A stretch of DNA of 61,909 nucleotides from an uncultured Candidatus Saccharibacteria bacterium (GCA_964653875.1 CAZZGH010000001.1:564-62472); one strand, 5' to 3'; positions 2,870-20,786 are shown, counted from the stretch's first letter. The notes: generated by a model not told the origin, from the sequence alone. Numbers and translations: made by a program.

Positions 2870-4054
2870 ATGAGCACCACAAGTCCTAAATATCCTCTGG
2901 CCGGTGACACAATTGACCATCAAGATATTGAAAATGTAATTACCTGGTTAAGAACTTCGCCAAGATTAACAATGGATGAAATGACTAAGCAGTATGAAAA
3001 TAAATGGACGGAATGGTTGGGAAGAAAGTTTGCTCTTTTCTGTAATTCCGGATCCTCGGCCAATCTTCTTATGTACTATGCCCTTCTTTGCTCCAGTAAA
3101 TTAATGAATAAAAAGGTTATTGTTCCAAGTGTAGGTTGGGTAACAACGATTGCTCCGGCTATTCAATTTGGTTTTGAAGCTATCATGTGCGAAGCAGATC
3201 CGGAAACATTCGGATTGGACCTGAACCACCTAGAAGAATTGCTTAAAAAGCACCATCCTGCCACGGTAATGCTTGTCCAAGTTCTTGGAATACCTCATAA
3301 AATGGATGAGGTTTTAGCCCTGAAAAATAAATACGGATTTATTCTATTGGAAGATGCTTGCGCTTCTGTGGGTTCAAGTTACAAAGACCAAAAGGTCGGA
3401 ACATTCGGAGATATGTCCAGTTTTTCTACTTATTACGGCCACCAGTCCCCGACCGTTGAGGGAGGACTTGTCTTTACTGACGACCAAGAGTTCCATAACA
3501 TTTTGGTAATGATCAGAAGCCATGGCTGGGGCCAGCATTTGGACTCCGAGACCTACAACAGAATCTTCAACAAGTACAATATTGATACCGCCCATCGGCC
3601 ATTTGCTTTCTTCTACCCGGGATTTAATGTCCGGCCCACTGATATACAAGCGTTCATCGGCTTAGGACAATTAGACAAGCTGGGGTGGACAATCAGGCGA
3701 AGGGCAGAAAATCATGAACTTTACCGACAGTTGCTAAGCAGCCATTTTTACACTCAAAATTACGACAAGAACTCCATGGTCTCAAGTATCCATTTCGCCA
3801 TCTTAGCCAAGGATTCAACCGAAAGAGACAAGATTGCCAATGCCCTGACGGAGAACAGCATAGAAACAAGATTATACTCCGCCGGCAATCTTGGCCTCCA
3901 TCCTTTCTGGTATGACAATTATGGCAAATTTACCGCACCCATGGCTACCAGAATTTATAATTGCGGACTTTTTCTTCCTAATAATCCGTCCCTTAATCAG
4001 GGGGATATAAAATTTATATCGGACGTAGTTTTAGCAAGTGTGGAGGCGAATTAA
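2870..4054 (+). CDS. PMP-dependent NDP-4-keto-6-deoxyhexose 3-dehydratase (ColD/E1 (RfbH/DdhC)-like, DegT fold)
   Basis: YPLAGDT..., SGSSANLL, VPSVGWVTT, LLEDACASVG and PGFNVRP match the ColD/E1 pattern. The active-site motif is FSTYYGHQSPTVEGG, with His where aminotransferases carry the Schiff-base Lys. Confidence 0.8.
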   Translation: MSTTSPKYPLAGDTIDHQDIENVITWLRTSPRLTMDEMTKQYENKWTEWLGRKFALFCNSGSSANLLMYYALLCSSKLMNKKVIVPSVGWVTTIAPAIQFGFEAIMCEADPETFGLDLNHLEELLKKHHPATVMLVQVLGIPHKMDEVLALKNKYGFILLEDACASVGSSYKDQKVGTFGDMSSFSTYYGHQSPTVEGGLVFTDDQEFHNILVMIRSHGWGQHLDSETYNRIFNKYNIDTAHRPFAFFYPGFNVRPTDIQAFIGLGQLDKLGWTIRRRAENHELYRQLLSSHFYTQNYDKNSMVSSIHFAILAKDSTERDKIANALTENSIETRLYSAGNLGLHPFWYDNYGKFTAPMATRIYNCGLFLPNNPSLNQGDIKFISDVVLASVEAN

Positions 4055-4180: not shown

Positions 4181-6028
4181 ATGAAACAGAGAGTCAGCGA
4201 TTATATCCTTGATTTTTTGGCAGATCATGACATTAAAGAAGTGTTTGAGGTTTATGGAGCAGCTAATGCAAATCTCATCGATGCTTTTACCCGTACTGAA
4301 AGGATCCGATATATCGCTACGATGCATGAGCAGGCTGCAGGCTTCGCTGCCGAAGGGTATGCAAAAGTAAGTCACAAGCCGGGCGTAGTTATTGCCACAA
4401 GCGGTCCTGGTGCACAAAATTTGCTCACACCTATCGGTAACTGCTTTTACGACTCCGTCCCCTGTCTTTTTTTGGTAGGCCAGATCAAATCACAATTCAT
4501 ACGCCCTGACCCGTCCGTAAGACAGGTTGGTTTTCAGGAAACTCCCATTGTTGAAATTGTTTCCTCAATAACTAAATATGCCAAACAGGTCCGCAACGCT
4601 AAAGATATTAAGTATGAACTTGAAAAAGCATGGTTCCTCTGCCAAGAAGGCAGACCCGGACCAGTTCTGCTCGATATGCCGATTGATGTTCAAAAAGAAG
4701 AAATCGATCTTAATGAGCTTCATGGTTTTGATCCGGAAATAAAAAAAACCGCATATGACACGCATTTGATTAATAGCCAAATAGATAACTTCCTCGAAGA
4801 CATAAGAAAAAGCAAGCGGCCAGTTATATTGGTTGGCGGAGGAGTGTGGATAGCCAACGCCGTCCAAGAACTTCTGGCAGCAGCAAAGGAACTAAAAATT
4901 CCCTGCCTGCCAACATTTAACGCTCTCGATGTGGTAACATCCGATTTCGAGTTCTATGGCGGACGGATCGGCACAAACGGTAGCCGAGCCGGCAATTTTG
5001 CTCTCCAAAATTCAGATCTTCTCCTTGCTATTGGTTGCCGTATTTCAGGAAGAATCACCGGAGGCAACCTTCATTCTTTTGCCAGAGAAGCAAAAAAATA
5101 TGTAGTAGATGTTGATCCGGCACTCCTTCAAAGAAAACTTCAGCAGATTCCGTTTGACGTTAACATCCGCTGTGATGCCAAAATATTTTTACAAACCTTG
5201 CTTGTAAAATTGCAAAGAGAATATTTTGCCTTAAGATACCGAAATAGTGATCACCCTCACAGCTGGTGGATGGATAAGGTTAATAAATGGAAACAAATGT
5301 ACCATCCGACCAAAGAAGAGCTCTTTTGCCGAAAAACAGATACGGTCAACCCATTTGTTTTCATGAAAAAGTTATCTGATCAGATGAAACCAGATGACAT
5401 TTTTGTTTACGACTGCGGAGGTAACGTTATTATTACGAATGCGATATTTGAAACCAAGCAGGGCCAGAGATTTATCACCAACAACGGCAATTCGCCAATG
5501 GGTTTTTCTTTTGCCGGAGCTATGGGGGCATGGTTTGCTTCTGATAAGAAAAAACAAAATGTGGTCTGCGTTATTGGTGACGGCGGATTTAACATGAATA
5601 TTCAGGAAATCCAAACTTGTATTAATTATGGTATCGGAATAAAAGTTTTTATTCTGAATAACCACATCTACGGCATTACCAAGTCTTTCCAGATAACTAA
5701 TTTCGGAGGCCGAATGGAAGCTTGTGGTCCAAAGGGCTATAGTCCGCCAGATTTTAGAAAGGTAATTGGACTCGGTTATGAAGCACCGCTGGAAGTAGTA
5801 GACAACGACGAAGAGGTTGAAGAAAAGATAAAAAAGGTCCTTAATTCAGACGGACTTATTTTCTGCGATATAAACTGCCACGAATGGCATTCGTATGGCC
5901 CTAAAATCATCGGCTGGAACACTCCGATTGAAGATATGTTTCCCTACCTGCCGAGAGATGAATTTAAAGAACAAATGATGATTGACCTTGTGCCCGGCTG
6001 GGAAAACCCGTTCACTTCAGTTGAATAA
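4181..6028 (+). CDS. thiamine-diphosphate-dependent enzyme, acetolactate-synthase-large-subunit/YerE-like
   Basis: 615 aa. N-terminal TPP_enzyme_N pattern (HEQAAGFAAEGYAK...SGPGAQNL) and ThDP-binding motif GDGGFNMNIQE...NN. Confidence 0.8.
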   Translation: MKQRVSDYILDFLADHDIKEVFEVYGAANANLIDAFTRTERIRYIATMHEQAAGFAAEGYAKVSHKPGVVIATSGPGAQNLLTPIGNCFYDSVPCLFLVGQIKSQFIRPDPSVRQVGFQETPIVEIVSSITKYAKQVRNAKDIKYELEKAWFLCQEGRPGPVLLDMPIDVQKEEIDLNELHGFDPEIKKTAYDTHLINSQIDNFLEDIRKSKRPVILVGGGVWIANAVQELLAAAKELKIPCLPTFNALDVVTSDFEFYGGRIGTNGSRAGNFALQNSDLLLAIGCRISGRITGGNLHSFAREAKKYVVDVDPALLQRKLQQIPFDVNIRCDAKIFLQTLLVKLQREYFALRYRNSDHPHSWWMDKVNKWKQMYHPTKEELFCRKTDTVNPFVFMKKLSDQMKPDDIFVYDCGGNVIITNAIFETKQGQRFITNNGNSPMGFSFAGAMGAWFASDKKKQNVVCVIGDGGFNMNIQEIQTCINYGIGIKVFILNNHIYGITKSFQITNFGGRMEACGPKGYSPPDFRKVIGLGYEAPLEVVDNDEEVEEKIKKVLNSDGLIFCDINCHEWHSYGPKIIGWNTPIEDMFPYLPRDEFKEQMMIDLVPGWENPFTSVE

Positions 6029-6127: not shown

Positions 6128-8200
6128 ATGAGACGAAAAGTAACGGTCGGTTTGTGCCAAATAAATGCCGGCTTTTCCGGCGCCAATTATCTTCCATATT
6201 CAGCAGGAATCTTGGAGGTATTTGCTCAAAAGAATATTCCGAATATCGATGACTTTCATTTTCTGCCCTATATATTTACTCGCGAATCAGTAGATTCGGC
6301 TGTGAAAAAACTTTTACCCGCAGATGTTGCGTGTTTTAGCCTTTATGTTTGGAATGACCAATTAGCCCGCAGAATAGCCAAAGAACTGAAAAAAATAAAA
6401 CCTGAAATCATTATCGTTGTCGGCGGTCCTCATGTGCCAGATAAATACAAATCTCATATTCAGAATAAACAAGCCACGCTTAAATGGGAAAATCCGAAGA
6501 AAACCGGTCAAGATATAATTGACCCCGCACTAGAAAGAACACAAACCTATTTAAGGGAAAATAATTATATTGACATCGCTGTCCATGGTGAAGGAGAAAG
6601 GCCTTTTTCAATTCTGCTCCAAAATCTATACGGCGACTGGAAAGAAATTCCTTCAATAAGTTTTTTAGATCGAGATGGCTTTATTGTCCAGACCGAAAGA
6701 ATCCCACGCTTAAAAGATCTTGACGAGGTACCTTCTCCATATCTTGAAGGAACTTTTGATTCTATTATCAAAGCATATCCGGACATGGAATGGATTACGG
6801 TTTGGGAGACAAATCGCGGATGTCCGTTTTCCTGTACATTTTGCGACTGGGGTTCAGCTATAGCGTCCAAAATAAATAAGTGGAAAATTGAAAGAGTTTA
6901 TCAAGAAATAGATTGGTTTGCAAAACATAACGTCCAGTTTATTTTTCTCGCTGACGCAAACTTCGGGATTTTGCCTCGTGATATAGAAATAGCCAAATAC
7001 TGCGCCGAAGTGAAAAGAAAGACCGGCCGTCCCAATACGATCACGGTTTCGAATACCAAAAATGCCACCGATCGGTCTTATCAGGTTCAAAAAATATTTG
7101 CCGACGCCGGCCTTGCTGCCGGAGCATCGCTATCAATGCAATCTTTAGATCCTCAAACCCTGAAAGATATAAAAAGAGATAATATCAACCTTGACTCATA
7201 CAGGGAAATTCAACGGCGAATGAAGGAGGATGGTATTTCAGCTTTTACTGATATTGTTCTTGGCTTGCCCGGAGAAACATATGACTCGTTCGCTAATGGT
7301 ATCGATGAACTTATTAGAAGTGGTCTTCATGATCGGGTTCTCTTCTATAATCTTACGATCCTGCCCAATGCCGAGATGGCCGACCCAAGTTATCAAAAAT
7401 TACATGGAATGGAGACAGTAAAAATGAGAAGTGTAAACATTCACGGCAGCAGAAAAGAAATAGAAGGAGACGTTCCTGAAGTGCAGGAGGTGGTAATCGC
7501 GACCAAAACAATGCCCAAAGAGGACTGGGTCCGGGTCTGTGTTTTTAGATGGACTTCAGCATTTCTACACTTTGATAAAATACTTCAGATTCCCCTTGTT
7601 CTCACGCATGAAATTACCGGAGCAAGTTATCGCGAATTGATAGAACTGTTTTCTGAAGACAATATTAAGAAAGCTGAAGAATTTCCCATACTAAACAGGG
7701 TGAGACAATTCTTCGTTGCTAAAGCGCAATCAATTCAGCGCGGAGAAGAAGAATTTTGTCATTCGCCAAAATATATTGATGTACGATGGCCATCTGATGA
7801 ATACATGCTCATTGATTTAGCCATTAACGGCGATCTTCCAGCATTCTATCAAGAAGCATACAGAACCTTGGAATCATTATCGGTTAAATATGGCAAAAGT
7901 GAGAATTTAGACGCAATAAAAGAAGCAGTGCAGCTTAACCAGGATATGTTAAAATTGCCATTCCGTGCCGATAGTCAGGATCTGTTGCTTTCATATAACA
8001 TTTGGGAATTCTATCACGCAGCAATTCGAGGTAAACCCATTCCCTTAGAAAAACACCGTGCTGTCATCACTATAGATTATGAGAGCGAGAAATGGAATTC
8101 ATGGGAAGATTGGTGCCGACAAGTTGTCTGGTACGGCAGTAAGCGCAGTGCTTATCTTTATGGAAACAAAGCTGTCGTTCAAATTGCGGGACATTTCTAA
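6128..8200 (+). CDS. cobalamin (B12)-binding radical SAM enzyme, long form (690 aa), paralog A
   Basis: N-terminal B12-binding Rossmann-like region (FSLYVWN...IIIVVGGPHVPD), the CX3CX2C cluster motif GCPFSCTFCDW, and a ~300-aa C-terminal extension ending AYLYGNK..QIAGHF. Confidence 0.8.
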   Translation: MRRKVTVGLCQINAGFSGANYLPYSAGILEVFAQKNIPNIDDFHFLPYIFTRESVDSAVKKLLPADVACFSLYVWNDQLARRIAKELKKIKPEIIIVVGGPHVPDKYKSHIQNKQATLKWENPKKTGQDIIDPALERTQTYLRENNYIDIAVHGEGERPFSILLQNLYGDWKEIPSISFLDRDGFIVQTERIPRLKDLDEVPSPYLEGTFDSIIKAYPDMEWITVWETNRGCPFSCTFCDWGSAIASKINKWKIERVYQEIDWFAKHNVQFIFLADANFGILPRDIEIAKYCAEVKRKTGRPNTITVSNTKNATDRSYQVQKIFADAGLAAGASLSMQSLDPQTLKDIKRDNINLDSYREIQRRMKEDGISAFTDIVLGLPGETYDSFANGIDELIRSGLHDRVLFYNLTILPNAEMADPSYQKLHGMETVKMRSVNIHGSRKEIEGDVPEVQEVVIATKTMPKEDWVRVCVFRWTSAFLHFDKILQIPLVLTHEITGASYRELIELFSEDNIKKAEEFPILNRVRQFFVAKAQSIQRGEEEFCHSPKYIDVRWPSDEYMLIDLAINGDLPAFYQEAYRTLESLSVKYGKSENLDAIKEAVQLNQDMLKLPFRADSQDLLLSYNIWEFYHAAIRGKPIPLEKHRAVITIDYESEKWNSWEDWCRQVVWYGSKRSAYLYGNKAVVQIAGHF

Positions 8201-8222
8201 AGACGCTTAAGCGTCTTTTTTG
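8199..8222 (+). terminator. rho-independent terminator
   Basis: AGACGC-ttaa-GCGTCT followed by TTTTTT. Confidence 0.7.
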
Positions 8223-8233
8223 TTCCCTTTTAG

Positions 8234-8262
8234 TTGACCAAAGAAAAATTTAACCGTATAGT
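8234..8262 (+). promoter_or_regulatory. promoter: TTGACC, 17-nt spacer, TATAGT
   Basis: -35 at 8234-8239 and -10 at 8257-8262. Confidence 0.5.
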
Positions 8263-8295
8263 TTCCAAATTGCGTTCATTAAAAATAAGGGAAAA

Positions 8296-9114
8296 ATGAC
8301 AGATATCAGTTACTTGACTCGACAAGCAAAAACAGCCAGGAAGCTGATATTGGATATGATATTTAAAGCCAAGTCGTCCCATCTTGGCTGCGCACTTTCT
8401 GTTACCGATATATTAACAGCATTATATTTTGGAGACATCCTTAAAATTGACCCCGAAAATCCAAATTGGGAAAACAGGGACAGATTCATATTGAGCAAAG
8501 GCCACGCCTGCGTAGCTCTATATGTCACTTTGGCGTTAAGGGGCTATTTCCCGTTTGAGAAACTAAAGGAATATGGCACCAACGGTACCCTGATTAGCGA
8601 CCATAATACCCTTGGATCTTTGCCAGGAATTGAAACGACCAATGGCTCCTTAGGTCATGGTCTGCCGCTTGGTATAGGAATGGCATTAGCCGAAAAAAAC
8701 GCAAGAAGGCCATCAAGAATATTTGTTTTGGTCGGAGACGGCGAGCTTCAGGAGGGTTCAAACTGGGAAGCATTAATGTTCGCTGGATTCCATAGATTAA
8801 ACAATTTAATCCTCATTATTGATAACAATAATCTTGAGACACTCGGACCAACCGACAAAATCCTTAGCCTCGCTACTATTCATAAGAAGTTGGAAAGCTT
8901 TGGATGGGATGCAGAAAATATTTCGGGGCATTGTTTTGCTGAAATTATCGGCCGGTTAAATATAAAACACGAAAAACCTTTTGCTCTGAATTGCCACACA
9001 ACAAAAAGCAAAGGCATTTCTTTTATGGAGGGCGACTACATCTGGCATGGCAAATGTCCGACCAAAGAAGAATATGAGAGGGCCAAAAAAGAATTGAGCG
9101 GAGAATTGCAATGA
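8296..9114 (+). CDS. transketolase, N-terminal (ThDP-binding) subunit
   Basis: SKGHACVALY, GSLGHGLPLGIGMA, VLVGDGELQEGSNWEA. The ATGA overlap with the next gene indicates a split TktA/TktB-type arrangement. Confidence 0.85.
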   Translation: MTDISYLTRQAKTARKLILDMIFKAKSSHLGCALSVTDILTALYFGDILKIDPENPNWENRDRFILSKGHACVALYVTLALRGYFPFEKLKEYGTNGTLISDHNTLGSLPGIETTNGSLGHGLPLGIGMALAEKNARRPSRIFVLVGDGELQEGSNWEALMFAGFHRLNNLILIIDNNNLETLGPTDKILSLATIHKKLESFGWDAENISGHCFAEIIGRLNIKHEKPFALNCHTTKSKGISFMEGDYIWHGKCPTKEEYERAKKELSGELQ

Positions 9115-10037
9115 GATTTGAAGTCATTAAGACGATTTATAAAGCCGCGTTAGCCGACCCTAAGGTGGTTTTTCTAACCGGTGATCTGGGCCATGCCCAC
9201 TTAGATGATTTCAAAGAAAATTTACCCGGCCAATATTTTAATGTTGGTATTGCCGAACAAAACATGATAGGCATTGCTGCCGGACTTGCTCTTTCAGGAC
9301 ATAGGGTATTTGCTTATTCAATTGCTCCATTTGTAACCTTGCGGTGTCTTGAACAAATTAAGGTGGATATTTGTTATCAGAATGTCGGGGTTGTAGTTAT
9401 CGGAGTGGCTGCTGGTTATGCTTATTCTACATGCGGATGCACTCACCACGCAATTGAAGATATTGCGGCCATGAAAGCATTGCCGAATATGCAAATATAT
9501 TCGCCATCTAATCCGTTTGAGGGGCGCTTAATTACAGAGTATTTAATAAAAGCATCTCATCCTGCATACCTTCGCATTGGCAAAGGCGGGGAACCAAATG
9601 CCAAAAAAGAATACGATTTGAAAATTGGAAAAGGATTAGTTGTTAAGCCCGGCAAAGACATAACCATATTTGCCACCGGCACAGTTGTAAATGAGGCTGT
9701 TGCCGCAAGCAATATTTTGGAGCAACACGGAATCAGTACAGAGGTGATAAATATACACACCATAAAACCTTTGGATAAAGAACTTATTGAAAAAACGGCC
9801 CGAACAAAAGACGCGATATTTGTCTTAGAAGAACACAACATCATCGGCGGGCTTGGAGAAAGTGTGGCAAGAGTCATTTGCGAATGTGGCGGAAACAAGA
9901 AACCGATTTTCCGATGTCTAGGTATTCCCGATGAATATAATCATCGTGTCGGATGCCATCAATATATGTTAAGCTGTTACGATCTAAACGCAGAAGCAGT
10001 TGCTAGAAAAGTTATGAATCTATATCAAGCCCCCTAA
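9111..10037 (+). CDS. transketolase, C-terminal (pyrimidine-binding) subunit
   Basis: FNVGIAEQNMIGIAAGLA, plus a C-terminal domain with IHTIKPLD. Translationally coupled to 8296-9114. Confidence 0.85.
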   Translation: MRFEVIKTIYKAALADPKVVFLTGDLGHAHLDDFKENLPGQYFNVGIAEQNMIGIAAGLALSGHRVFAYSIAPFVTLRCLEQIKVDICYQNVGVVVIGVAAGYAYSTCGCTHHAIEDIAAMKALPNMQIYSPSNPFEGRLITEYLIKASHPAYLRIGKGGEPNAKKEYDLKIGKGLVVKPGKDITIFATGTVVNEAVAASNILEQHGISTEVINIHTIKPLDKELIEKTARTKDAIFVLEEHNIIGGLGESVARVICECGGNKKPIFRCLGIPDEYNHRVGCHQYMLSCYDLNAEAVARKVMNLYQAP

Positions 10038-10050
10038 CGGGGCTTTTTTG
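10028..10050 (+). terminator. rho-independent terminator overlapping the stop codon
   Basis: AGCCCC-ctaac-GGGGCT followed by TTTTT. Confidence 0.6.
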
Positions 10051-10079
10051 TTGACAGAAACCGCAAAAAAATACATAAT
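10051..10079 (+). promoter_or_regulatory. promoter: TTGACA, 17-nt spacer, CATAAT
   Basis: Lies immediately after the terminator. Consensus -35. Confidence 0.55.
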
Positions 10080-10114
10080 ACACGCCAAGAACTTTGAAAT
10101 TGGGGTAAAAAAAT

Positions 10115-10915
10115 ATGGACCTCAACCTTAGAGGAAAAACCGCACTTATTACCGGTTCAAGTCAGGGTATAGGCAAAGCATGCGCTATCGCTTTAGCCAA
10201 AGAGGGATGCAATGTCCTTTTATGTGCACAGAATGCTTCTAAGTTAAGAAGGGTTTATGTGAAAATTGAGGAAATGTATTCCAACATTAATGGAAACTGG
10301 GCAACAGTTGATGCGACTTCTCAAGAGAGTGTTAAGAACCTTTTGAGCCAGATTCATTGTCTTGATATCCTTGTAAATAATGTCGGCGGCGGAACTGGTA
10401 AACCCCTCGGTCTTTTTGAAATAAAGGAGGATGAATGGTTGAAAATATATCAACTGAATGTTTTAAGTATGATCTGGTTTACCAAGTACGCCCTGCCCTT
10501 ACTGGAAGCATCATCGCAAGCAAGAATTATCAACATTAGCAGCGCCACCTCTCATCAGCCGGGATTATACAATCCTCATTATGGAGCGGCAAAATCTGCT
10601 ATGGATTTTCTGACAAAGCGCATGGCTAACGAGCTTGCACCGAAAAGAATTTGCGTCAACGCAATCGGTCCCCATGCCGTTCTTTGTGAGAATTGGGAAA
10701 GAGATGTCCGGGATCGCGCAGAAACCTGCAAAATATCGCTAGAGGAGGCACGGACAATAATGACCGAAGAGGTTAATGCCAAAATACCGATGAACAGGCA
10801 AGGAACATCTGAAGATGTTGCCAATTTGGTGGTCTATTTAGCTTCCGCTCAAGCCAACTTTATTACCGGCACCTACATTCCGGTGGACGGCGGCACCCTA
10901 AAGGCGCGGCCATGA
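10115..10915 (+). CDS. short-chain dehydrogenase/reductase (SDR)
   Basis: TGSSQGIGKA glycine-rich loop, NNVG, and the catalytic S...YGAAK motif. Confidence 0.8.
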   Translation: MDLNLRGKTALITGSSQGIGKACAIALAKEGCNVLLCAQNASKLRRVYVKIEEMYSNINGNWATVDATSQESVKNLLSQIHCLDILVNNVGGGTGKPLGLFEIKEDEWLKIYQLNVLSMIWFTKYALPLLEASSQARIINISSATSHQPGLYNPHYGAAKSAMDFLTKRMANELAPKRICVNAIGPHAVLCENWERDVRDRAETCKISLEEARTIMTEEVNAKIPMNRQGTSEDVANLVVYLASAQANFITGTYIPVDGGTLKARP

Positions 10916-11913
10916 AATACAGACCGCTGGGAACTTCTGGAATTATGGTATCGGAAATAGGATTTGGCGGATGGGGTATCGGCGGAGCGACAGAAGGCGC
11001 CACCTCATATGGACCAACTGATGATAACGAATCAATAAGGGCTCTGGAAACAGCCTTTGATCAAGGAATAAATTTCTACGATACTGCGGGTGTCTACGGC
11101 AAAAGTGAAGAGTTAATAGGTAGGGTTTTTAAACACCGGCGAGGCCAAGTGGTTATTGGAACCAAAGTGGGATTTCTGGAGCATCATACCCCGCAAGATT
11201 TTTCTAGAAGAAATATTATCGCCACGCTCCAAAGAAGTTTAAAAAACCTGGACACGGATTATATTGATCTTCATCAACTCCACAACCCAGACATTCAAAA
11301 ATTACCCATGGCTGAAATCATAGACGCCTTAAAAGAATTGAAAACTCAAGGACTGGTTAGGGCGTTAGGTATTTCAGTCAAACACCCCGACCACGGTTTA
11401 GTGGCACTAGGATACGAAGAGTTTGATTCTATTCAAGTCAATCTAAGTATGATTGACCAACGAGCCGTTGATAATAAACTCTTGGTATTAGCCGAGAGAT
11501 TAGGCACAGGAATTATCGCGCGTACGCCTCTGAATTTCGGTTTCCTTACCGATAATGGAAAGACAATGGATCTGAATTTCGGCCCACAGGATCATAGGTC
11601 GGTTTGGCCCATCAAACAGAGAGAAGCATGGCAAAAAGCCGCTCGATTGTTAGCAGAAGTCCACACAGAAGATTCTTTAGCTATTTTGGCTCTTCGTTAT
11701 TGTTTAAGCGTTAAAGGGGTAAGTACTGTCATTCCTGGCATGCTTACCGTAAATGATGTTTTGGCGAATACTGCCGCAAAAGGACTGACAGCCTTGAGCC
11801 ATGAAACAATGAATAGAATTAAACGGGTATATAATGAGAATGGTCAGTTTTTTGTTAGACCGGGCCAAAGCAATAGCCAGGAGTTGTTTTATCCGGCTAA
11901 TGATATGGCCTAA
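10912..11913 (+). CDS. aldo/keto reductase
   Basis: GFGGWGIGG, INFYDTAGVYG, YIDLHQLHNPD and a C-terminal VIPGM motif. ATGA overlap with the SDR gene. Confidence 0.8.
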   Translation: MKYRPLGTSGIMVSEIGFGGWGIGGATEGATSYGPTDDNESIRALETAFDQGINFYDTAGVYGKSEELIGRVFKHRRGQVVIGTKVGFLEHHTPQDFSRRNIIATLQRSLKNLDTDYIDLHQLHNPDIQKLPMAEIIDALKELKTQGLVRALGISVKHPDHGLVALGYEEFDSIQVNLSMIDQRAVDNKLLVLAERLGTGIIARTPLNFGFLTDNGKTMDLNFGPQDHRSVWPIKQREAWQKAARLLAEVHTEDSLAILALRYCLSVKGVSTVIPGMLTVNDVLANTAAKGLTALSHETMNRIKRVYNENGQFFVRPGQSNSQELFYPANDMA

Positions 11914-11930
11914 AGCACTAAAATAAATTA

Positions 11931-11960
11931 AAAACCTCCAATTACTATGGGAGGTTTTTT
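11931..11960 (+). terminator. rho-independent terminator
   Basis: AAACCTCC...GGAGGTTT hairpin followed by TTTTTT. Confidence 0.6.
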
Positions 11961-11968
11961 GATTATTA

Positions 11969-11997
11969 TTGTCAAAAGACACATTTTGATGTATAAC
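11969..11997 (+). promoter_or_regulatory. promoter: TTGTCA, 17-nt spacer, TATAAC
   Basis: -35 at 11969-11974 and -10 at 11992-11997. Confidence 0.45.
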
Positions 11998-12031
11998 TAC
12001 CCCTAAGAACCTTAATAATTAAGGGGTGCAT

Positions 12032-14179
12032 ATGAGTTCAAAAATAATTCCCCTTACGATAAGAGCCGAAAGTCCTCCACCGACTTCAATTGTTTTAAAA
12101 CCAAAAAACAAGTTAAAAATAGGGCTTGTCCAGCTTAATAACAGCTTTTCCGATCAGAATTATTTTCCCCAGTCTGTGGGAATGATTCAAGCCTATGCTC
12201 AAAAATACCTGACCCATGCTGAAGACTATGACTTTCTTTTGCCACTTTTTACTTTTATGCCGATTGACGAGGCAATAGATAAGTTAAGCGATGCCCATGT
12301 TCTGGCCATTAGTCTTTATGTTTGGAATTTTGAAAATTCTATGGCCATAGCCAAAGAATTTAAGAGACGATACCCAGAACGGTTAGTCATCGTTGGTGGA
12401 CCTCATGTACCTGATAGCAAAAAACAATTTGCCAGAATAAAAAAAAGCGACCCCAAACCGGATGATCTTAAGCGTAAAAGAATGGGCATGACTGAAAAAT
12501 TTCATCAGGATAATCCTTATATTGATACTGCTGTTCATGGCGAGGGCGAAAGAGTGTTCAAAATGATTTTAGAGCAGGTGCCGGACAGCCTTGCCAATAA
12601 AAGCCGGATTCCCTCAATAAGTTATCTCGATTCGAATGGAACTTTTCATCATAATCCCAAACTTGAACGTATGCATGATTTGTCTGAAGTTCCTTCTCCA
12701 TATTTAGACGGGGTATTTGATACTCTTATGGCAGCTCATCCAGACCAAAAATGGATTGCGATGTGGGAAACTGATCGCGGCTGTCCTTATCAATGTACAT
12801 ATTGCGATTGGGGCGGTGCTATTGAAGATAAGATAAGCCTTTTTCCGCTTGATCGCATCACAAAAGAAACTTGGTGGTTCGCAGAAAGAAAAGTCCCCTA
12901 CATCTTTATCGCTAACGCCAACTTCGGACTTCCTAAACAGGATGTGCAAATTGCAAGAGTCCTGGCTGAAGTTAAAAAGGCTACTGGATATCCCGAAGGC
13001 GTATCTGTACAGAATGCAAAGAACCCCAAACCCCACACGTTAGAAGCTCTGAAAATTCTTCAAGAAGCCGGACTGAACAAGGCAACCGTAATGTCCATCC
13101 AGTCAAAAAATCGCGAAACCCTTGAAGCTGTTCGCCGACAAAACATGAAACCGGAAGAATATCAAATAATCCAAAAAGAACTAAGGGCTCAGGGTGTTTA
13201 CACAATGACTGATTACATCATTCCGATGCCCATGGAAACATACCAAAGCGTATTAGAAGGTGTTTCAAAAATTATTGAAGATGGACAACATGACAGAATT
13301 CAGTTTAATAATCTTTCCATATTGCCTAACGCAGAAATGGGCGATCCGGAATATCAAGAAGAATATGGAATGGAAATGGTTAGGACGCCAATAACGAACA
13401 TCCATGGCAAGAAAAATGCATCCATTAGCAGCATTGAAGAATACCAAGAACTTGTCATCGCAACCAGCACCATGTCTCGAGAAGAATGGATTAAAACTCG
13501 CTCATTCTGCTATGTGGTAGGGCTTATTTATTTCAACAAGCTCCTACAGATACCAATAATGATCCTGCATGAAGTTTATGGAATACCCTATCAAAAAATA
13601 TTTGAAGTATTTATGGAAACCCCAAGACGATCTAACAAATTTCCTGTTTTCGCCGAGTTGCTAGACTTCTTTGAGGAATTCTCTCGAGGCATTCAAAATG
13701 GTACAAACGAAGAGTTTTACCATTCTAAGGAGTGTCTCAATATTCTATGGCCTCCGGACGAATATGCATTTATAAAGATATGCAGAGAAGGAAAATTTGG
13801 TCAATTTTACGAAGAGGCATTGGCGATGATGACGAACCTCGTAAGTTCAAACCAATCTGCTGAACCGCTACTAGATGCGGTGAAGCTTAACAAATCCTTG
13901 ATAAAACTGCCGTTTCAAACTACTGATTTAGAAATGGCCTTATCTTATAATATTTGGGAGGTTTATAAGGCCGCACTTATTGAACAAGAGTTGGAACTTA
14001 AAAAAGGCATACATAATTATTCTGTTGACAGAACGACAAAATCAGATTCTGCAAACACTAACGCGAGATGGGACTCATGGGAAGAATGGTATGAAAAAAT
14101 GGTCTGGTGGTGCAACCGCCGAGGAGCATATCTCTATGGAAATAAAAATCCGCACACAGAGATTGCCGGTCATCACTAA
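12032..14179 (+). CDS. cobalamin (B12)-binding radical SAM enzyme, long form (~715 aa), paralog B
   Basis: Collinear with 6128-8200 (ISLYVWN...LVIVGGPHVPD, GCPYQCTYCDW, C-terminal AYLYGNK..EIAGHH). ATG at 12032 is preferred: AAGGGG lies 5 nt upstream, whereas the ORF track starts at GTG 12026. Confidence 0.8.
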   Translation: MSSKIIPLTIRAESPPPTSIVLKPKNKLKIGLVQLNNSFSDQNYFPQSVGMIQAYAQKYLTHAEDYDFLLPLFTFMPIDEAIDKLSDAHVLAISLYVWNFENSMAIAKEFKRRYPERLVIVGGPHVPDSKKQFARIKKSDPKPDDLKRKRMGMTEKFHQDNPYIDTAVHGEGERVFKMILEQVPDSLANKSRIPSISYLDSNGTFHHNPKLERMHDLSEVPSPYLDGVFDTLMAAHPDQKWIAMWETDRGCPYQCTYCDWGGAIEDKISLFPLDRITKETWWFAERKVPYIFIANANFGLPKQDVQIARVLAEVKKATGYPEGVSVQNAKNPKPHTLEALKILQEAGLNKATVMSIQSKNRETLEAVRRQNMKPEEYQIIQKELRAQGVYTMTDYIIPMPMETYQSVLEGVSKIIEDGQHDRIQFNNLSILPNAEMGDPEYQEEYGMEMVRTPITNIHGKKNASISSIEEYQELVIATSTMSREEWIKTRSFCYVVGLIYFNKLLQIPIMILHEVYGIPYQKIFEVFMETPRRSNKFPVFAELLDFFEEFSRGIQNGTNEEFYHSKECLNILWPPDEYAFIKICREGKFGQFYEEALAMMTNLVSSNQSAEPLLDAVKLNKSLIKLPFQTTDLEMALSYNIWEVYKAALIEQELELKKGIHNYSVDRTTKSDSANTNARWDSWEEWYEKMVWWCNRRGAYLYGNKNPHTEIAGHH

Positions 14180-14300: not shown

Positions 14301-15275
14301 TTGAAAGCATTAATCACGGGAATTGCCGGTTCCGGAGCCAGCTATTTGGCCGAATACATCATTGCCAATAAGCCTTCGGTTGAATTACACGGCACAATCC
14401 GCTGGCATAGCACTGTTTCCCAAAAAAATATTGAGGCAATTCATGGAAAAGCAATCATCCACGACTGCGATCTAAACGATCCGATGGCCGTTTGCCGTTT
14501 AATAAATGGAATAAAACCAGACACGATTTTCCATCTCGCATCTTACGCCAACGTAAGAAAGGCCTGGGACAATCCGGTTGGCGTTTTGCAAAATAATATC
14601 ATGAGTACGATATATCTTTTAGAAGCCGTCCGGTTAACTGGAATTAAACCCACAATTCAAATGTGCAGTACACCGGAAGTATATGGACAAGTTGACCCAA
14701 AAAATATTCCTATCGATGAAAACTGCCCGATTAACCCCAACAATCCCTACGCTGTTTCAAAGTACGCCCAGGAGTCGCTGGGATATTCTTATTTTAAAGG
14801 TCATAGTTTACCGATAATCATAACCAGAATGTCTACTTACATAAACCCGCGCCGAGAGGATCTATTTGCCACATCTTTTGCCATGCAAGTGGCCAGAATA
14901 GAAGCCGGCCTGCAAAAAGAATTGCTTCATGGTAATTTGGATTCTACAAGAACAATCCTCGACGCTAGAGATTGCGCTAGTGCTTACTGGGTAGCTATGG
15001 AAAAAGGTGAGCCCGGAGAGGCCTATAATATCGGCGGTAATAAAGTTGTAACCGTTGGAGAGTTTTTGGAAATCCTGAAAAAGAAAACCCGCTGTTCCAT
15101 TCCCTCCAAAGTGGACGAAGGACTGCTCCGTCCCGTGGATGCCACTTTGCAAATAATTAATACAGAAAAATTCTTTAAACAGACCGGCTGGCAACCCGTA
15201 TATGACTTTGAAGAAAGCATAGGATTTCTTCTTGAACATTGCCGTAAAAAAATTAGCCACGAAACCCCGCGATAA
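14301..15275 (+). CDS. NAD(P)-dependent sugar dehydratase/reductase of the Gmd/Rmd branch of extended SDRs
   Basis: TTG start. N-terminus ITGIAGSGASYLAEYII resembles the Gmd [12 protein letters not shown] motif. Also has NPYAVSK (YxxxK) and a degenerate INPRRED in place of NHESPRRGE. Confidence 0.65.
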   Translation: MKALITGIAGSGASYLAEYIIANKPSVELHGTIRWHSTVSQKNIEAIHGKAIIHDCDLNDPMAVCRLINGIKPDTIFHLASYANVRKAWDNPVGVLQNNIMSTIYLLEAVRLTGIKPTIQMCSTPEVYGQVDPKNIPIDENCPINPNNPYAVSKYAQESLGYSYFKGHSLPIIITRMSTYINPRREDLFATSFAMQVARIEAGLQKELLHGNLDSTRTILDARDCASAYWVAMEKGEPGEAYNIGGNKVVTVGEFLEILKKKTRCSIPSKVDEGLLRPVDATLQIINTEKFFKQTGWQPVYDFEESIGFLLEHCRKKISHETPR

Positions 15276-15290
15276 ACGGGGCTTTTATTT
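15264..15290 (+). terminator. rho-independent terminator overlapping the stop codon
   Basis: CCCCG-cgataaa-CGGGG followed by CTTTTATTT. Confidence 0.55.
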
Positions 15291-15313
15291 ATATCGGGGT
15301 TATGATAGTTTTT

Positions 15314-15370
15314 AGGGTAGCAGGATTAGAAAAATTATAAAATAGATAACTTTATTAATCCTACTACCCT
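15314..15370. repeat. 15-bp inverted repeat (14/15 paired) with a 27-nt AT-rich loop, ending 3 nt before the ATG at 15374
   Basis: AGGGTAGCAGGATTA (15314-15328) against TAATCCTACTACCCT (15356-15370). Confidence 0.8.
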
Positions 15371-15373
15371 TTT

Positions 15374-16459
15374 ATGCAAAATGTTGCCATATATTTAAGA
15401 ACTCGCGACCGATCTGATTTTGTTATCCGCCAACTGCAATATTACGCTTCCGTCAATTGTCCTCACCCGATTTATATTGGCGATGCCAGCAACGAAGAAC
15501 ATAGCGCCCGGATTAAGAATGCAATTAAATCCTTAGAAAATAAAATCGCAGTAACTTATAAGTTATATCAAGAAACTGAAAAATTCACCCAAGAAGATTC
15601 TCACGATGATCTTTTGTCCATAATCAAGGAAAAATACGGCGCTTGTGTCGGAGACGATGATTATTTTGTACCAAATTCTCTGACCAAATGCGCACAGTTC
15701 CTAGAAGAACATCCGGATTATGTCACGGCCAGCGGTTATGCGGTAAGTTTTCGTCTCAAGAATAATGGAATTTACGGTGAATTAAACTACATCGCAGATT
15801 ATCCCAGAAAACAGGTTGAGCATGAAAGGGCATCAGAAAGAGCCATCAAATTTTTTCAAGAATATTATACGCCGATGTTTTATGTTCACCGCATGGATTC
15901 AATGCGTAAATTTTGGCGCGCATCTAAAACCATACCCGATGTTCCTTTTGCCACTGAAATCCTTCCGTCCGTCTTATTGGTTGTCGAAGGCAAGTCTAAA
16001 GTAGTTGATTGTTTAAGTCTGGTCAGGCAAATTCACAACAGGCATTATGCCCTGCCCGGTTTTATCGACCGGATAACCGGCTCTGATTGGGGTAAGTCTT
16101 ATAAAATGTTCGAGGATGCAATGGCCAAAAATATCTCTGAAAAAGATAACATAACACGCGAGGAAGCCATACTGATTACAAGACAAGCTTTTTTGACCTA
16201 TCTAAAAAAGTACATAACAAAAGAATGTGGCGAGTATGATCAGGGTCCAAAAAGTAATTATATTAACAAAAACATTATGAAACCTCTTCGTTCTAAAATT
16301 ACCAGAACATTTCCTTTTCTTAAACATATCTACCGAACACAAGTAAAGCCGAGATTAACCGGAAAAAAGGAACTTCATTATGAAGTGCTCAAAGCCGGGT
16401 CTAAGTATCACAAAGACTTTAAGCCGATAATGGACTCGTTCACCGGCTTTATCAAATAA
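15374..16459 (+). CDS. hypothetical protein, possibly a GT-A-fold glycosyltransferase-like domain
   Basis: The N-terminus VAIYLRTRDRSDFVIRQLQYYAS...IYIGDASNEEH resembles the beta-alpha-beta plus D-x-S start of GT2-like domains seen in O-antigen loci. The call is weak. Confidence 0.4.
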   Translation: MQNVAIYLRTRDRSDFVIRQLQYYASVNCPHPIYIGDASNEEHSARIKNAIKSLENKIAVTYKLYQETEKFTQEDSHDDLLSIIKEKYGACVGDDDYFVPNSLTKCAQFLEEHPDYVTASGYAVSFRLKNNGIYGELNYIADYPRKQVEHERASERAIKFFQEYYTPMFYVHRMDSMRKFWRASKTIPDVPFATEILPSVLLVVEGKSKVVDCLSLVRQIHNRHYALPGFIDRITGSDWGKSYKMFEDAMAKNISEKDNITREEAILITRQAFLTYLKKYITKECGEYDQGPKSNYINKNIMKPLRSKITRTFPFLKHIYRTQVKPRLTGKKELHYEVLKAGSKYHKDFKPIMDSFTGFIK

Positions 16460-16489
16460 ATCGTCTCGGAAAATGCCTCGCTGGTCAAA

Positions 16490-17482
16490 TTAAAAGCTAT
16501 TAGCGGGATTATTATAAATTATTTGACTCCCTGAACTTTCAAATTTGAACGGAACATTAAGAAGATGTTGAAGAGCTTTTTTAACCAGCCGTTGTTTTTG
16601 GGGTTCTACAAACAAAAGCATAAATCCACCCCCGCCGGCTCCCAAAAGTTTTCCTCCAATGGCTCCGGCCGATCTTGCCCGATTATAGGCAAGGTCAATA
16701 GAATTATTGGACACATTTTCAGAAAGTGATCTTTTAAGAAGCCATGATTCGTGAAGCATCTCGCCAAATTTATTAAGATTCCCGTCTTTTAATACTTTAA
16801 CTGCCGGTTCAACCATAGAATACATTTTTGCGAGTTCATTTTTTCTGCTTTTAAAATTTCTAATTTTTTTCTTTTCAATATCCGATGATTTTCTTATTAT
16901 ACCAGTGAAAAATAATAAAAGATGGTCTTCGAATTGTTTCAAACGTTCGGAAGGTAGAGATACCGGCGTAACAATTATTCTATCATCAGGCAAAAAATCA
17001 ATCTTATTCAATCCGCCGAAAGCGACCGCTGTTTGGTCTTGCGAGCCAACGGCGTCTTTTATCATATTTTGTTCTATGTGGATAGCTTTTAGAGCAAGGT
17101 CATGTTTTTCCATTTTTTCTCCTTGTAAAGTGCGCAAAGCATGCAAAAGACCGACAGTAAAGGATGAGCTTGTGCCCATACCCGACCAAGCTGGCAGATC
17201 ACCTTGGTGATAAATTTCAATGCCCTTTTCAATGCCGGTGTGTTTAAGACAATTTCTGACCACGGGATGAAAAATCTGGTTGATCCTATTCGGCATTTCT
17301 ATTTTTGAATAAACGATCCTATGCTTATGATTAAAAAAGGGGGGAAGATAACGGCAAGTGACATAGCAGTACTTATTGACAGTCGTGCTTAAAACACTTC
17401 CGCCGTATTTGCGGTACCAAGCTGGCAGATCAGTGCCTCCTCCGAAAAAAGATATTCTATAAGGTGTCTGGGTTATAATCAT
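16490..17482 (-). CDS. GHMP-family sugar kinase (HddA/fucokinase-like, COG2605 type)
   Basis: N-terminus TPYRISFFGGGTDLPAWY, GHMP motif PAWSGMGTSSSF, and C-terminal GGKLLGAGGGGF. Confidence 0.8.
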   Translation of the reverse strand: MIITQTPYRISFFGGGTDLPAWYRKYGGSVLSTTVNKYCYVTCRYLPPFFNHKHRIVYSKIEMPNRINQIFHPVVRNCLKHTGIEKGIEIYHQGDLPAWSGMGTSSSFTVGLLHALRTLQGEKMEKHDLALKAIHIEQNMIKDAVGSQDQTAVAFGGLNKIDFLPDDRIIVTPVSLPSERLKQFEDHLLLFFTGIIRKSSDIEKKKIRNFKSRKNELAKMYSMVEPAVKVLKDGNLNKFGEMLHESWLLKRSLSENVSNNSIDLAYNRARSAGAIGGKLLGAGGGGFMLLFVEPQKQRLVKKALQHLLNVPFKFESSGSQIIYNNPANSF

Positions 17483-19471
17483 CTAGGAACTAAAAAACGG
17501 TTTTAAATTGCTTGAATGTATTAACCAGGCATAACCGCGCCACAGGTCTTTTTTTGTAATTTCGTGGAGAATTAAGTCCCTAAAACTTGTTACCTCTCCT
17601 TCGTGTACCCAGATTCTGCTCGTCCCGTATGTTTTAAATTTAACAGTAGCTATTTTTTCTATTTCTTTTGTCTCCAAAAGCCTATTTAGCACAGGGTCCA
17701 CGGTATAATCACCATTGGCTATAGCTTCTTTTTCGGATTCCATGCTTATTGATTTACTGCTAGTTCCGGGTATGGCTATCCAACCATCGGCAACATCAGC
17801 AATGCTTTTTATGTATACCACTTCAAACGGCGCAGAAATATTTTTATCAGGCATAAAATCAGAAACCGCAATACCGGGAACTCCTTCAACAAAACATTTA
17901 TTAAAATTGGTTTTATAAGTATATAGTCTTTTTATTTTTAGAGAATCAATCTTTTCCATCAGATTAACAATCGTCATTCTTGATGGAAAAACATCGGATA
18001 AAAATATTTTACCGCTTGTAACCGCGGCAACACCTAGAATAAAAAGTAAAATAAAGAAATAGTAATCGCTAATATGCGTCAACAGAGAAAAAGAATAACC
18101 CACAAAGAGTATGGTGCCGACAAAGCCAGGAGAATAAGTTCTGACTACCTGTGGAGCTCCGGTGAGCTCTGCCCACAAAATTGGAGATAGAGAAAGAAAA
18201 AGAATTATTGCTCCGTTAATTGCCACATCAAGGTTTTTTAATACAATAATCTGGAAAATAAAAAATGCCAGTCCGACCATAAAAACAACTGTATAAACGG
18301 GCGCCATACGGAAGAAAATTTTCGGAAGCCATCGCATCCCCGCACCACGGTATTCTCTAGTGACGGTAATTCCTCTTTCGGCAAAAAAGTCTATATAAAG
18401 TTTAAAACGATGCTTGTTCAAAATCTGGGTATTTTTCAAATAGTCATAGTAATGACCAAATGACTCTCCGATATTGGGAAGATTGAGTGCAAAAAACACG
18501 ATAGCAAAGCCGATAACAATAGACGCCGTCCATAATAATCCCAGTAGGTTTATCAAAAATACAAAAAAGACAAATATAAAAACAGAAAATGGGACAATTT
18601 GTTTAAGTTTCCTTTTTGCATGTTCTAAGTAGTGGTCAAGATCAAATTTTTCTCTACTCACAATTATCTGATTCAAAAAAGGCAAAGCCTGGTTTTTGTA
18701 AATTAAAATTACTATTTTTTTGTATAAAAGCTTGACTACAATAAAAGATAGGACGGCTAAAACGACCAAAAATAAACTAAGCAAAAAATGGTCATTTGTT
18801 TTAATAAGCAAATTTAATCCTAAGAAGCCGTTTTTGCCGTTAGATATCAGATTATATTTTTCATAAACGACAGCGCCCCAAAATAACGGCAAATATTTGA
18901 AGGAGGAGGCCGATGAAAATAGAGTCAAACACAAAACTCCTCCGGCAGTCATCAACCAAAAAAACTGGCCTCCCACAAGATCGCTAGCGCCCGCTTGATG
19001 CACAAAAAAAATAGAGAGAAGCGAAACGGCCATAGCAACATTAGTGTGTCCGCCATAGAGAGCCGTTTGCCAAGGCCATAAAGATAAAAGCAGTAAAAAC
19101 CCCATAAAAAGTCCGATGGTCGGAGTCCAATAATTACTGCCTATTAAAAAAATTAAAACAGCTGATACGGCCACCATTGTCCCGCTCAAAGTTGTGTAAG
19201 TGTGGTCTGATGTTTTGTCTCTTAAAATCTTTTGAAACACAGATATCAATATCACCGTAAATTCTTTCATTCCCATTTTAAACGGGCTAAGACTGTATTT
19301 GTGAAGATCGGATAACCAGCGCCATTTATAGGACTGGGCAGCAGCATGCACCATCAATTCATTATCTGTATTTGGTCCGTTAAACAAAATATGACGAGTG
19401 GCTATGGAAAACAAAACAGCAAACAAGGATGAGCTAAATATAATTATTTCCAAGCCGAGATTATATGACAT
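17483..19471 (-). CDS. polytopic membrane protein with a C-terminal ~170-aa soluble domain (function unknown)
   Basis: 662 aa with more than 12 hydrophobic segments. Its stop abuts the kinase start. No catalytic motif recognised. Confidence 0.5.
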   Translation of the reverse strand: MSYNLGLEIIIFSSSLFAVLFSIATRHILFNGPNTDNELMVHAAAQSYKWRWLSDLHKYSLSPFKMGMKEFTVILISVFQKILRDKTSDHTYTTLSGTMVAVSAVLIFLIGSNYWTPTIGLFMGFLLLLSLWPWQTALYGGHTNVAMAVSLLSIFFVHQAGASDLVGGQFFWLMTAGGVLCLTLFSSASSFKYLPLFWGAVVYEKYNLISNGKNGFLGLNLLIKTNDHFLLSLFLVVLAVLSFIVVKLLYKKIVILIYKNQALPFLNQIIVSREKFDLDHYLEHAKRKLKQIVPFSVFIFVFFVFLINLLGLLWTASIVIGFAIVFFALNLPNIGESFGHYYDYLKNTQILNKHRFKLYIDFFAERGITVTREYRGAGMRWLPKIFFRMAPVYTVVFMVGLAFFIFQIIVLKNLDVAINGAIILFLSLSPILWAELTGAPQVVRTYSPGFVGTILFVGYSFSLLTHISDYYFFILLFILGVAAVTSGKIFLSDVFPSRMTIVNLMEKIDSLKIKRLYTYKTNFNKCFVEGVPGIAVSDFMPDKNISAPFEVVYIKSIADVADGWIAIPGTSSKSISMESEKEAIANGDYTVDPVLNRLLETKEIEKIATVKFKTYGTSRIWVHEGEVTSFRDLILHEITKKDLWRGYAWLIHSSNLKPFFSS

Positions 19472-19799: not shown

Positions 19800-20786
19800 T
19801 TAATTTTTCTTTCCGATCAAATAGAAATTTTGAGGCAAATGGCTTATCTCATAATTAGTCCAGTCATACTCCGAATTGTTTTTCATATATTCTTGAAAAT
19901 ATTTCACATTGTCTATCGTCTCAAAATTTGCCTGATAAGCCACGAGCACATACTTGGGTTTGCCTATTCTTTTGAAAAATTCATTCCGCAATTCGATTGG
20001 CGATTCACTTAAAGACCAAGTGGCTATAAAAATATCAGGATTAGGATCACCCAGTTTTTCTGTTTGATTGATAAAATTAAAATTGCCTTCTGCGTTGCTT
20101 GAGCGCAGGTAATATTTTTGAAGGGCCAAGAGTTCCGGTATATCGAAAATTATATATTTTCCCTTGAATCCCAAATTATTCACGAGATTAGCCATGCAAC
20201 CATATCCGCCGCCAAATTCTATTATTTTGCCGGCTTGTTTTACATCAAATTTATAGTGGTCAACCAGCCGAGAAAGGTTATAGGCAGTATTAATAAAATT
20301 ACCGCTGCTTTTTTGATAGTATTTATATTTTGGCGGATTGCCGACCCACGTTTCTTTTATTGCCGCTGACCATTTGCCCCAGTTATTATTTGCCAAATAG
20401 TCGTATTCGGGTCTCCGAGCCCCCGCAGACATTGTTTCAACAATGGGTTCCCATCTTAAAAAATTTCTTGGATCTTTCTTTAATATACACAACCTTACAT
20501 GCTTTCTATATTTGTCCCACAAACTCGTACATTCGGCTGTTTGGCTATCAATATCTGTTATGGAGCCGACCAACTCAATTCTATTCATTCTCTCGCTCGG
20601 GGTTTCGTTTTTTAATCTTACTTTCAGTTCTTCCAGATTATTTTTTATTATCTTTATTATCTTTATCTTGCGGCTAATGCTGATTGATTTATTTTTTGTT
20701 TTATTTGCCAGATTTATTGCCCGCTTCGGCAGCATTTTTCTGCAAAATTCTTTAAAACAAACCGAAAAAGAAGGTATGCGTGCCAT
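19800..20786 (-). CDS. class I SAM-dependent methyltransferase, putative sugar O-methyltransferase
   Basis: IIEFGGGYGCMA glycine-rich SAM motif followed by IIFDIPE. The context is glycan genes. Confidence 0.5.
   Translation of the reverse strand: MARIPSFSVCFKEFCRKMLPKRAINLANKTKNKSISISRKIKIIKIIKNNLEELKVRLKNETPSERMNRIELVGSITDIDSQTAECTSLWDKYRKHVRLCILKKDPRNFLRWEPIVETMSAGARRPEYDYLANNNWGKWSAAIKETWVGNPPKYKYYQKSSGNFINTAYNLSRLVDHYKFDVKQAGKIIEFGGGYGCMANLVNNLGFKGKYIIFDIPELLALQKYYLRSSNAEGNFNFINQTEKLGDPNPDIFIATWSLSESPIELRNEFFKRIGKPKYVLVAYQANFETIDNVKYFQEYMKNNSEYDWTNYEISHLPQNFYLIGKKN

Follow-up and report, generated by a model that had tools for sequence, protein, structure and literature searches.

Which reaction is catalyzed by two large radical S-adenosylmethionine (SAM) enzymes that depend on cobalamin and are encoded in the glycan locus of an uncultured Candidatus Saccharibacteria bacterium? 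The question is raised by a 61,909-nucleotide stretch of its genome (GCA_964653875.1, CAZZGH010000001.1:564-62472; hereafter the window), in which the genes rSAM1 (6128-8200, plus strand, 690 residues) and rSAM2 (12032-14179, plus strand, 715 residues) stand among genes of nucleotide-sugar metabolism. As sequence comparison and structural models indicate, both proteins are class B radical SAM enzymes of the three-domain kind represented by TokK, ThnK, CysS and KedN5. They probably act as cobalamin radical SAM methylases of a sugar-pathway intermediate, a reading to which a probability of about 0.65 is assigned; its most likely form, suggested by gene context, is that of methylcobalamin-dependent C-methylases acting on a keto-sugar nucleotide.

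The two proteins share 278 of 701 aligned positions (40%; BLASTP E = 0) and are collinear over residues 2-689, a likeness far beyond chance. The initial annotation had described them as a collinear pair with shared motifs, and all nine motifs that it quoted are present in both at matching positions. Its count of four cobalamin (B12) radical SAM genes in one glycan locus is also borne out, as PF04055 and PF02310 are both found in all four. In the pair, PF04055 scores above its cut-off in both proteins and PF02310 does so in rSAM1 (37.7 bits, cut-off 32.1). The domains of rSAM1 comprise, approximately, a cobalamin-binding domain (residues 1-219), a radical SAM domain (220-461) and a C-terminal substrate domain (462-690). 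An exact-sequence look-up of rSAM1 gave no match and homologues were used instead, while the rSAM2 reading frame has two possible starts, at 12026 (717 residues) or at 12032, the ATG used by database entry P0124.

TokK (PDB 7kdx, 681 residues) is the closest solved structure (rSAM1 E 1.8e-91; family profile E 7e-132), followed by CysS (645 residues; E 8e-61; family profile E 2e-86). Over the core, the window pair are 39% and 36% identical to TokK and 36% and 33% identical to CysS. AlphaFold (AF2) models of both proteins (predicted local distance difference test, pLDDT, 85; predicted template modeling score, pTM, 0.86) were compared with solved structures by Foldseek. They superpose on TokK with template modeling (TM) scores of 0.78-0.85 over 664-712 columns (rSAM1 0.78/0.82 over 664; rSAM2 0.79/0.85) and on CysS with scores of 0.66-0.76, against about 0.45 for TsrM and 0.43-0.48 for OxsB, to which identity is 14-15%. 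OxsB has an extra N-terminal domain and a four-domain fold (TokK paper). The initial annotation had regarded the size and long C-terminal domain of the pair as unusual, with OxsB as the comparable enzyme. That view is overturned: TokK and CysS share the three domains, a size of 690-715 residues is normal for their subgroup, and OxsB is ruled out as a counterpart by its TM score of about 0.45 and by a four-domain fold not encountered in the pair. In the models, the C-terminal domain corresponds to the third domain of TokK and CysS and is thus not new; it seemed unassigned because sequence alignment stops at about TokK residue 479. In both solved enzymes, this domain builds the substrate channel jointly with the B12 domain (TokK preprint; CysS paper). 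Toward the C-terminus of the family, K484, Y501, Q537, W554, E558, K609, the AYLYGN tail and H689 are invariant. The best NCBIfam match of each protein is NF033712, the KedN5-family methylcobalamin-dependent radical SAM C-methyltransferases (E 1e-76 and 5e-69), limited to model positions ~106-466 of 624; by sequence, the two are relatives of the KedN5 family and not members of it.

The residues that handle the cofactors are retained. The CX3CX2C motif of the [4Fe-4S] cluster reads CPFSCTFC in rSAM1 (C232/C236/C239) and CPYQCTYC in rSAM2 (C251/C255/C258), aligning to TokK C206/C210/C213. GGPHVPD and HGEGE are likewise kept in alignment with TokK; absence of the B12-binding residues on proper alignment would have counted against the initial annotation, which stands on this point, as the B12-domain motifs align exactly. 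The lower-axial tryptophan under the cobalt (TokK W76, CysS W75) lies within the shared SLYVWN motif as W75 in rSAM1 and W98 in rSAM2, and the active-site tryptophan of the CDWG motif (TokK W215, CysS W206) is W241 and W260, respectively. Both positions are invariant among 44 family members, and among the known methylases compared, both are conserved only in TokK, ThnK and CysS (TokK paper). The substrate site is different. TokK R280 binds the carbapenam carboxylate, and its CysS equivalent, W271, serves as a gate and hydrogen-bonding residue (CysS paper); rSAM1 has T306 and rSAM2 has S325 at this site, and the position of TokK Y410 is an invariant histidine throughout the family. As the cofactor residues are kept and the substrate residues of TokK and CysS are changed, a different substrate is therefore expected. 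CysS His371 was considered as a marker separating methylases from enzymes of other chemistry, and was rejected as it is not conserved even in TokK. A further peculiarity concerns the loop between GGPHVPD and HGEGE, whose length is 16 residues in most family members, as in TokK, but 40-47 in the rSAM1 subclade and 40 in 9/9 B-type (rSAM2-like) proteins checked. The insert (rSAM1 residues 106-152, 6443-6583; rSAM2 residues 129-168, 12416-12535) is basic and modeled at low confidence (pLDDT < 50).

In a maximum-likelihood tree, 42 glycan-context sequences of the A type (rSAM1) and B type (rSAM2) form one clade apart from TokK and CysS, with a Shimodaira-Hasegawa-like approximate likelihood ratio test (SH-aLRT) value of 97; TokK and CysS entered this tree as core fragments only and sit on long branches, such that their exact placement is unsure. 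The B type is monophyletic (SH-aLRT 100) and nested inside A-type diversity. Orthologues of rSAM1 occur on a Joint Genome Institute (JGI) contig (80% identity) and in a metagenome-assembled genome (MAG) of Candidatus Saccharibacteria (74%), and those of rSAM2 reach 83% identity, with named members in Candidatus Yanofskybacteria. Pairs of A and B on the same contig are also found in relatives (P0005 with P0133; L006). A recent duplication was rejected, given that each gene has its own orthologue group and B forms a distinct clade; by this phylogeny the two genes are old paralogs, representing two old subfamilies.

Relatives are encoded in at least 585 species genomes. Their carriers include Elusimicrobia, Nitrospirae, Acidobacteria, Planctomycetes, Verrucomicrobia, Alpha- and Betaproteobacteria and cyanobacteria, and among cultured organisms Enhydrobacter aerosaccus ATCC 27094 and Bradyrhizobium strains. 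Few genomes of the phylum to which the window belongs carry the family (2/301), which fits a patchy, island-borne distribution. The C-terminal domain alone, used as a query, retrieves 371 clusters at 50% identity and forms the end of a 630-720-residue chain wherever a full-length protein is listed. Members of ~1000 residues were considered as fusions to another enzyme; this was rejected, as the additional segments are LAGLIDADG/HINT inteins and uninformative on function. In five such proteins from other metagenomes (P0252, P0264, P0266, P0273 and P0314; ~1000-1090 residues), a LAGLIDADG or HINT/DUF559 intein separates the B12 domain from the radical SAM core. Relatives, up to 45% identical over the full length, also occur on 28 IMG/VR contigs (L091-L118), filed as viral though they may be misfiled cellular DNA, and several of these keep the gene order radical SAM enzyme, aldo-keto reductase (AKR), epimerase, DegT.

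The gene neighborhood, which bears on the substrate, was counted over those 57 loci with relatives, all from genomes, that span at least 15 kb. A short-chain dehydrogenase/reductase (SDR) of the nucleoside diphosphate (NDP)-sugar reductase/epimerase kind is present in 54/57 loci, a two-subunit thiamine diphosphate (ThDP) enzyme, transketolase- or E1-like, in 47/57, an AKR in 43/57, a GHMP sugar kinase in 38/57, an NTP-transferase in 34/57 and a DegT-family enzyme in 28/57. In 39 of these 57 loci, the AKR gene follows immediately downstream of the radical SAM gene, with both on one strand and no more than 300 nt apart; in the window and on the Yanofskybacteria contig L089, it is directly upstream of the B-type gene. 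Pfam-annotated neighborhoods from Candidatus Saccharibacteria and Yanofskybacteria MAGs, E. aerosaccus ATCC 27094 and other MAG or metagenome contigs agree with these counts, and the sugar-gene neighborhood is conserved across phyla. Sugar or lipid-linked substrates had been thought likelier than a ribosomally synthesized and post-translationally modified peptide (RiPP); the neighborhood counts support a place in a sugar pathway over a peptide, as does the score of 45.8 bits of each protein against the RiPP methylase model TIGR03975 (cut-off 281.85). The accompanying observation that no precursor peptide is encoded beside the pair also stands: the gaps flanking rSAM1 and rSAM2, taken from the reading-frame coordinates, are 95-121 nt and therefore too short for a precursor-peptide gene.

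Within the window, the pair belongs to a plus-strand operon. It begins with a NodU/CmcH-type carbamoyltransferase (1050-2744; PF02543, PF16861), followed by a DegT-family protein of the E1/ColD 3-dehydratase type (2870-4054; PF01041; best NCBIfam RfbH) and an acetolactate-synthase-like ThDP enzyme of the YerE/JanthE kind (4181-6028; three TPP_enzyme domains; PDB 8rph, E 5e-86). Downstream of rSAM1 are a split transketolase-like ThDP enzyme (N part 8296-9114, PF00456; C part 9111-10037, PF02779 + PF02780), a classical SDR (10115-10915; PF00106/PF13561), which also adjoins the ThDP pair in loci L001, L003, L005 and L087, and an AKR (10912-11913; PF00248). After rSAM2, the operon continues with an SDR resembling NDP-sugar 4,6-dehydratases/epimerases (14301-15275) and a TIGR04440-domain glycosyltransferase (15374-16459), both assigned by Pfam/NCBIfam scan. 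A GDP-fucose-synthase-like gene is also present near the operon. The DegT protein carries the sequence SFSTYYGHQSPTVEGG, with a histidine at the position of the pyridoxal phosphate-binding lysine of aminotransferases, which we take to be the motif of ColD/E1 3-dehydratases. Structure 8rph is that of JanthE, an aldehyde-ketone ligase (PMC12188165), and the YerE/JanthE-like enzyme is a candidate for the installation of an acyl branch. This enzyme was seen in 0/57 related loci, which use two-subunit ThDP enzymes; the window has both kinds.

Homology, fold and cofactor motifs are established for the pair, as are its clade structure and a conserved gene context; from these we infer methyl transfer and a sugar-nucleotide substrate, together with a probable site of methylation and possible iteration. 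By analogy with the solved relatives TokK and CysS, a first SAM would methylate cob(I)alamin, held base-off over the conserved tryptophan (rSAM1 W75, rSAM2 W98), and a second would be cleaved at the CX3CX2C [4Fe-4S] cluster to yield a 5'-deoxyadenosyl radical. An unactivated sp3 carbon of the substrate would lose a hydrogen to this radical, and the resulting substrate radical would receive the methyl group from methylcobalamin. The C-terminal and B12 domains may form a channel in which the nucleotide of an NDP-sugar, probably GDP-linked, replaces the pantetheine tail of TokK and CysS substrates. Gene context points to a deoxy-keto-sugar that would be methylated at a carbon beside its keto group, or beside that of an acyl branch installed by the thiamine enzyme, with the adjacent AKR perhaps reducing the ketone after methylation. 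The two enzymes would carry out different or successive methylations.

Several observations weigh against this proposal. Methyl transfer by the clade follows only by analogy with the few characterized relatives, which are methylases, and class B enzymes also perform ring contraction, dehydration, cyclization and thioether formation. The scores against NF033712 (258.6 and 233 bits) are far below the cut-off of 700, and the last ~200 residues of the pair cannot be aligned with TokK or CysS by sequence. The PF02310 score of rSAM2, 26.9 bits, is below the Pfam cut-off, although its model superposes on TokK along the whole chain. No nucleotidyltransferase was recognized in the window, and the nucleotide carrier is therefore not fixed. 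In the genome (G000; 805 kb, 101 contigs, 92% complete), no cobalamin riboswitch, CobS, CobD/CbiB, BtuF-type or FecCD-type protein was found, and the lack of a match for these five markers of cobalamin synthesis and uptake therefore leaves cofactor supply unexplained.

The chemical breadth of class B enzymes (described in reviews) gives rise to one alternative, in which the pair performs cobalamin radical SAM chemistry on a sugar without methylation, whether a rearrangement or ring contraction like that of OxsB, a dehydration or deoxygenation, or a chain-extending C-C coupling. Such skeleton remodeling is suggested by the several C-C bond-forming ThDP enzymes of the loci and would suit a substrate pocket unlike those of TokK and CysS. 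It is nonetheless improbable, as methylase activity is ascribed to each characterized enzyme of the closest clade (TokK, ThnK, CysS and KedN5), both clade-specific tryptophans are kept and the match to OxsB is poor. A second alternative accepts methylation and assigns it to another substrate: a sugar not yet activated, whether free or phosphorylated, the alpha-keto acid that serves the ThDP enzyme as donor, or a glycan already polymerized or linked to lipid. The GHMP kinase, NTP-transferase-HAD and sometimes NUDIX proteins that accompany the family imply non-nucleotide intermediates in the pathway, the acyl-branch length of known sugars is set by the keto-acid donor (PMC9306805), and the third and fourth radical SAM genes of the window sit among transferases and not among precursor enzymes. 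Against these points, the tightest linkage is to the AKR and the NDP-sugar SDRs, and the long channel that accommodates a carrier tail in TokK and CysS suits a nucleotide handle, which makes this alternative unlikely to much the same degree. A RiPP or secondary-metabolite pathway merely residing in a glycan island, which could be suspected from the natural-product roles of TokK, CysS and KedN5 and from weak matches to RiPP methylase models, is close to refuted and was rejected given the narrow gaps, the model scores far below cut-off, the sugar neighborhood conserved across phyla, and the finding of no nonribosomal peptide synthetase, polyketide synthase or carrier-protein gene among the window genes scanned.

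Methylation of a sugar-pathway intermediate, the preferred reading, is not without precedent. GenK and Fom3 are class B methylases whose substrates are an aminoglycoside sugar and a cytidylylated phosphonate, respectively. These natural-product enzymes provide examples in which cobalamin radical SAM chemistry methylates a sugar carbon or a substrate linked to a nucleotide. Known enzymes of like structure are TokK and ThnK, the carbapenem C6 side-chain methylases (PDB 7kdx, 7kdy), which resemble the window pair in their three domains, length, cofactor motifs and both tryptophans. They differ in falling into a separate clade and in serving a pantetheinylated carbapenam pathway, whereas the pair has a nucleotide-sugar gene context. 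CysS, the iterative methylase of the cystobactamid alkoxy group (PDB 9n1b-d), has the same three domains and the tryptophan under the cobalamin; its gate Trp271 is replaced by a small residue in the pair and its substrate context is different. In pathway terms, the operon resembles the route to yersiniose, erwiniose and caryophyllose, in which an E1-type 3-dehydratase, a YerE-type ThDP ligase and a reductase yield acyl-branched 3,6-dideoxy sugars (PMC9306805). The operon has the E1/ColD-type DegT protein, the YerE/JanthE-like enzyme and reductases to set beside these. No radical SAM enzyme takes part in the known yersiniose-type routes (PMC9306805), whereas the window adds rSAM1 and rSAM2, the split transketolase and the carbamoyltransferase.

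The enzyme type is thus already known, and the clade and its sugar context are without prior description in the literature searched, which yielded no characterized clade member and nothing linking the clade, or cobalamin radical SAM enzymes generally, to surface glycans or Patescibacteria. The initial annotation had called radical chemistry on glycans at this density unusual; it is indeed undescribed in that literature, but the cassette recurs across the at least 585 species genomes noted above. Work on cobalamin radical SAM methylases has dealt almost exclusively with pathways to antibiotics, cofactors and lipids, and a clade that spans phyla and is tied to genes for nucleotide sugars would bring their chemistry to cell-surface glycans. 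The clade predicts sugars bearing methyl or larger alkyl branches on unactivated carbons, which are lacking in current glycan databases, and its cultured carriers make it tractable.

A tentative extension, on balance doubtful, goes beyond single methyl transfer. The A and B families may, like TokK and CysS, iteratively add one to three methyl groups beside the keto group of surface sugars, the site being either the thiamine-installed acyl branch of a GDP-linked 3,6-dideoxy sugar or its deoxy tail and the reaction preceding the AKR, with the six cobalamin radical SAM enzymes of this episymbiont-like genome running on cobalamin from neighboring cells. If true, such iterative alkylation would produce a class of glycan residues with dense alkyl branching that structural chemistry has never encountered. 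All six of these B12-binding enzymes are encoded in sugar loci, four in the window and two in a second locus on another contig. Given this concentration in an 805-kb genome and the lack of a match for the five cobalamin markers, the surface chemistry of the bacterium may therefore depend on the vitamin of other cells. Genomes sampled from its phylum measure 0.5-1.2 Mb, and Saccharibacteria and Yanofskybacteria are its closest named relatives, which makes it probable that the genome belongs to the Patescibacteria (CPR).

Beyond the operon, the window contains a GHMP sugar kinase that most resembles HddA, a heptose-7-phosphate kinase (16490-17482, minus strand; PF00288/PF08544; NF049969 170 bits, below cut-off). 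Two minus-strand genes follow: one encodes a 662-residue protein (17483-19471) with no Pfam or NCBIfam match and the other a 328-residue protein (19800-20786) with a weak match to NanM-like sugar O-methyltransferases. In loci L001 and L002, from the closest relatives, genes of like size and position adjoin the GHMP kinase; a tblastn match was obtained for the 662-residue protein only. As no nucleotidyltransferase was recognized in the window, this protein may be a candidate for that role. The remainder of the window encodes many GT4 and GT2 transferases, a YdjC-family protein, an ABC exporter, NDP-sugar epimerases and reductases, a Wzy_C/O-antigen-ligase-domain protein, PMT-type transferases and methyltransferases.

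The third B12-radical-SAM gene (25018-26604, minus strand, 526-528 residues) is distantly related to the pair and has a syntenic orthologue in L001/L002. Its cluster motif is CPYKKCAFC (CX4CX2C; 25795-25821, minus strand). The L001/L002 orthologue, 86% identical, carries the canonical CPYDCSFC, and a relative in L016 has a five-residue spacing variant. The fourth gene (40520-42025, plus strand, 501 residues) encodes a generic class B enzyme and is located among GT4 genes.

The second sugar locus encodes an E1 alpha/beta pair, epimerases, a sulfotransferase and an ATP sulfurylase. On contig C6 of the same genome (L088, 10156-12399, minus strand), a 747-residue protein fuses a pyruvate-kinase barrel, a PUA_2 domain and an ATP sulfurylase, and its gene adjoins a sulfotransferase and two more B12-radical-SAM genes. 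The Yanofskybacteria contig L089 encodes the same fusion extended by an adenosine 5'-phosphosulfate (APS) kinase (14795-17512, 905 residues). Joining pyruvate kinase to ATP sulfurylase in this way may provide ATP-regenerating sulfate activation for a sulfated glycan.

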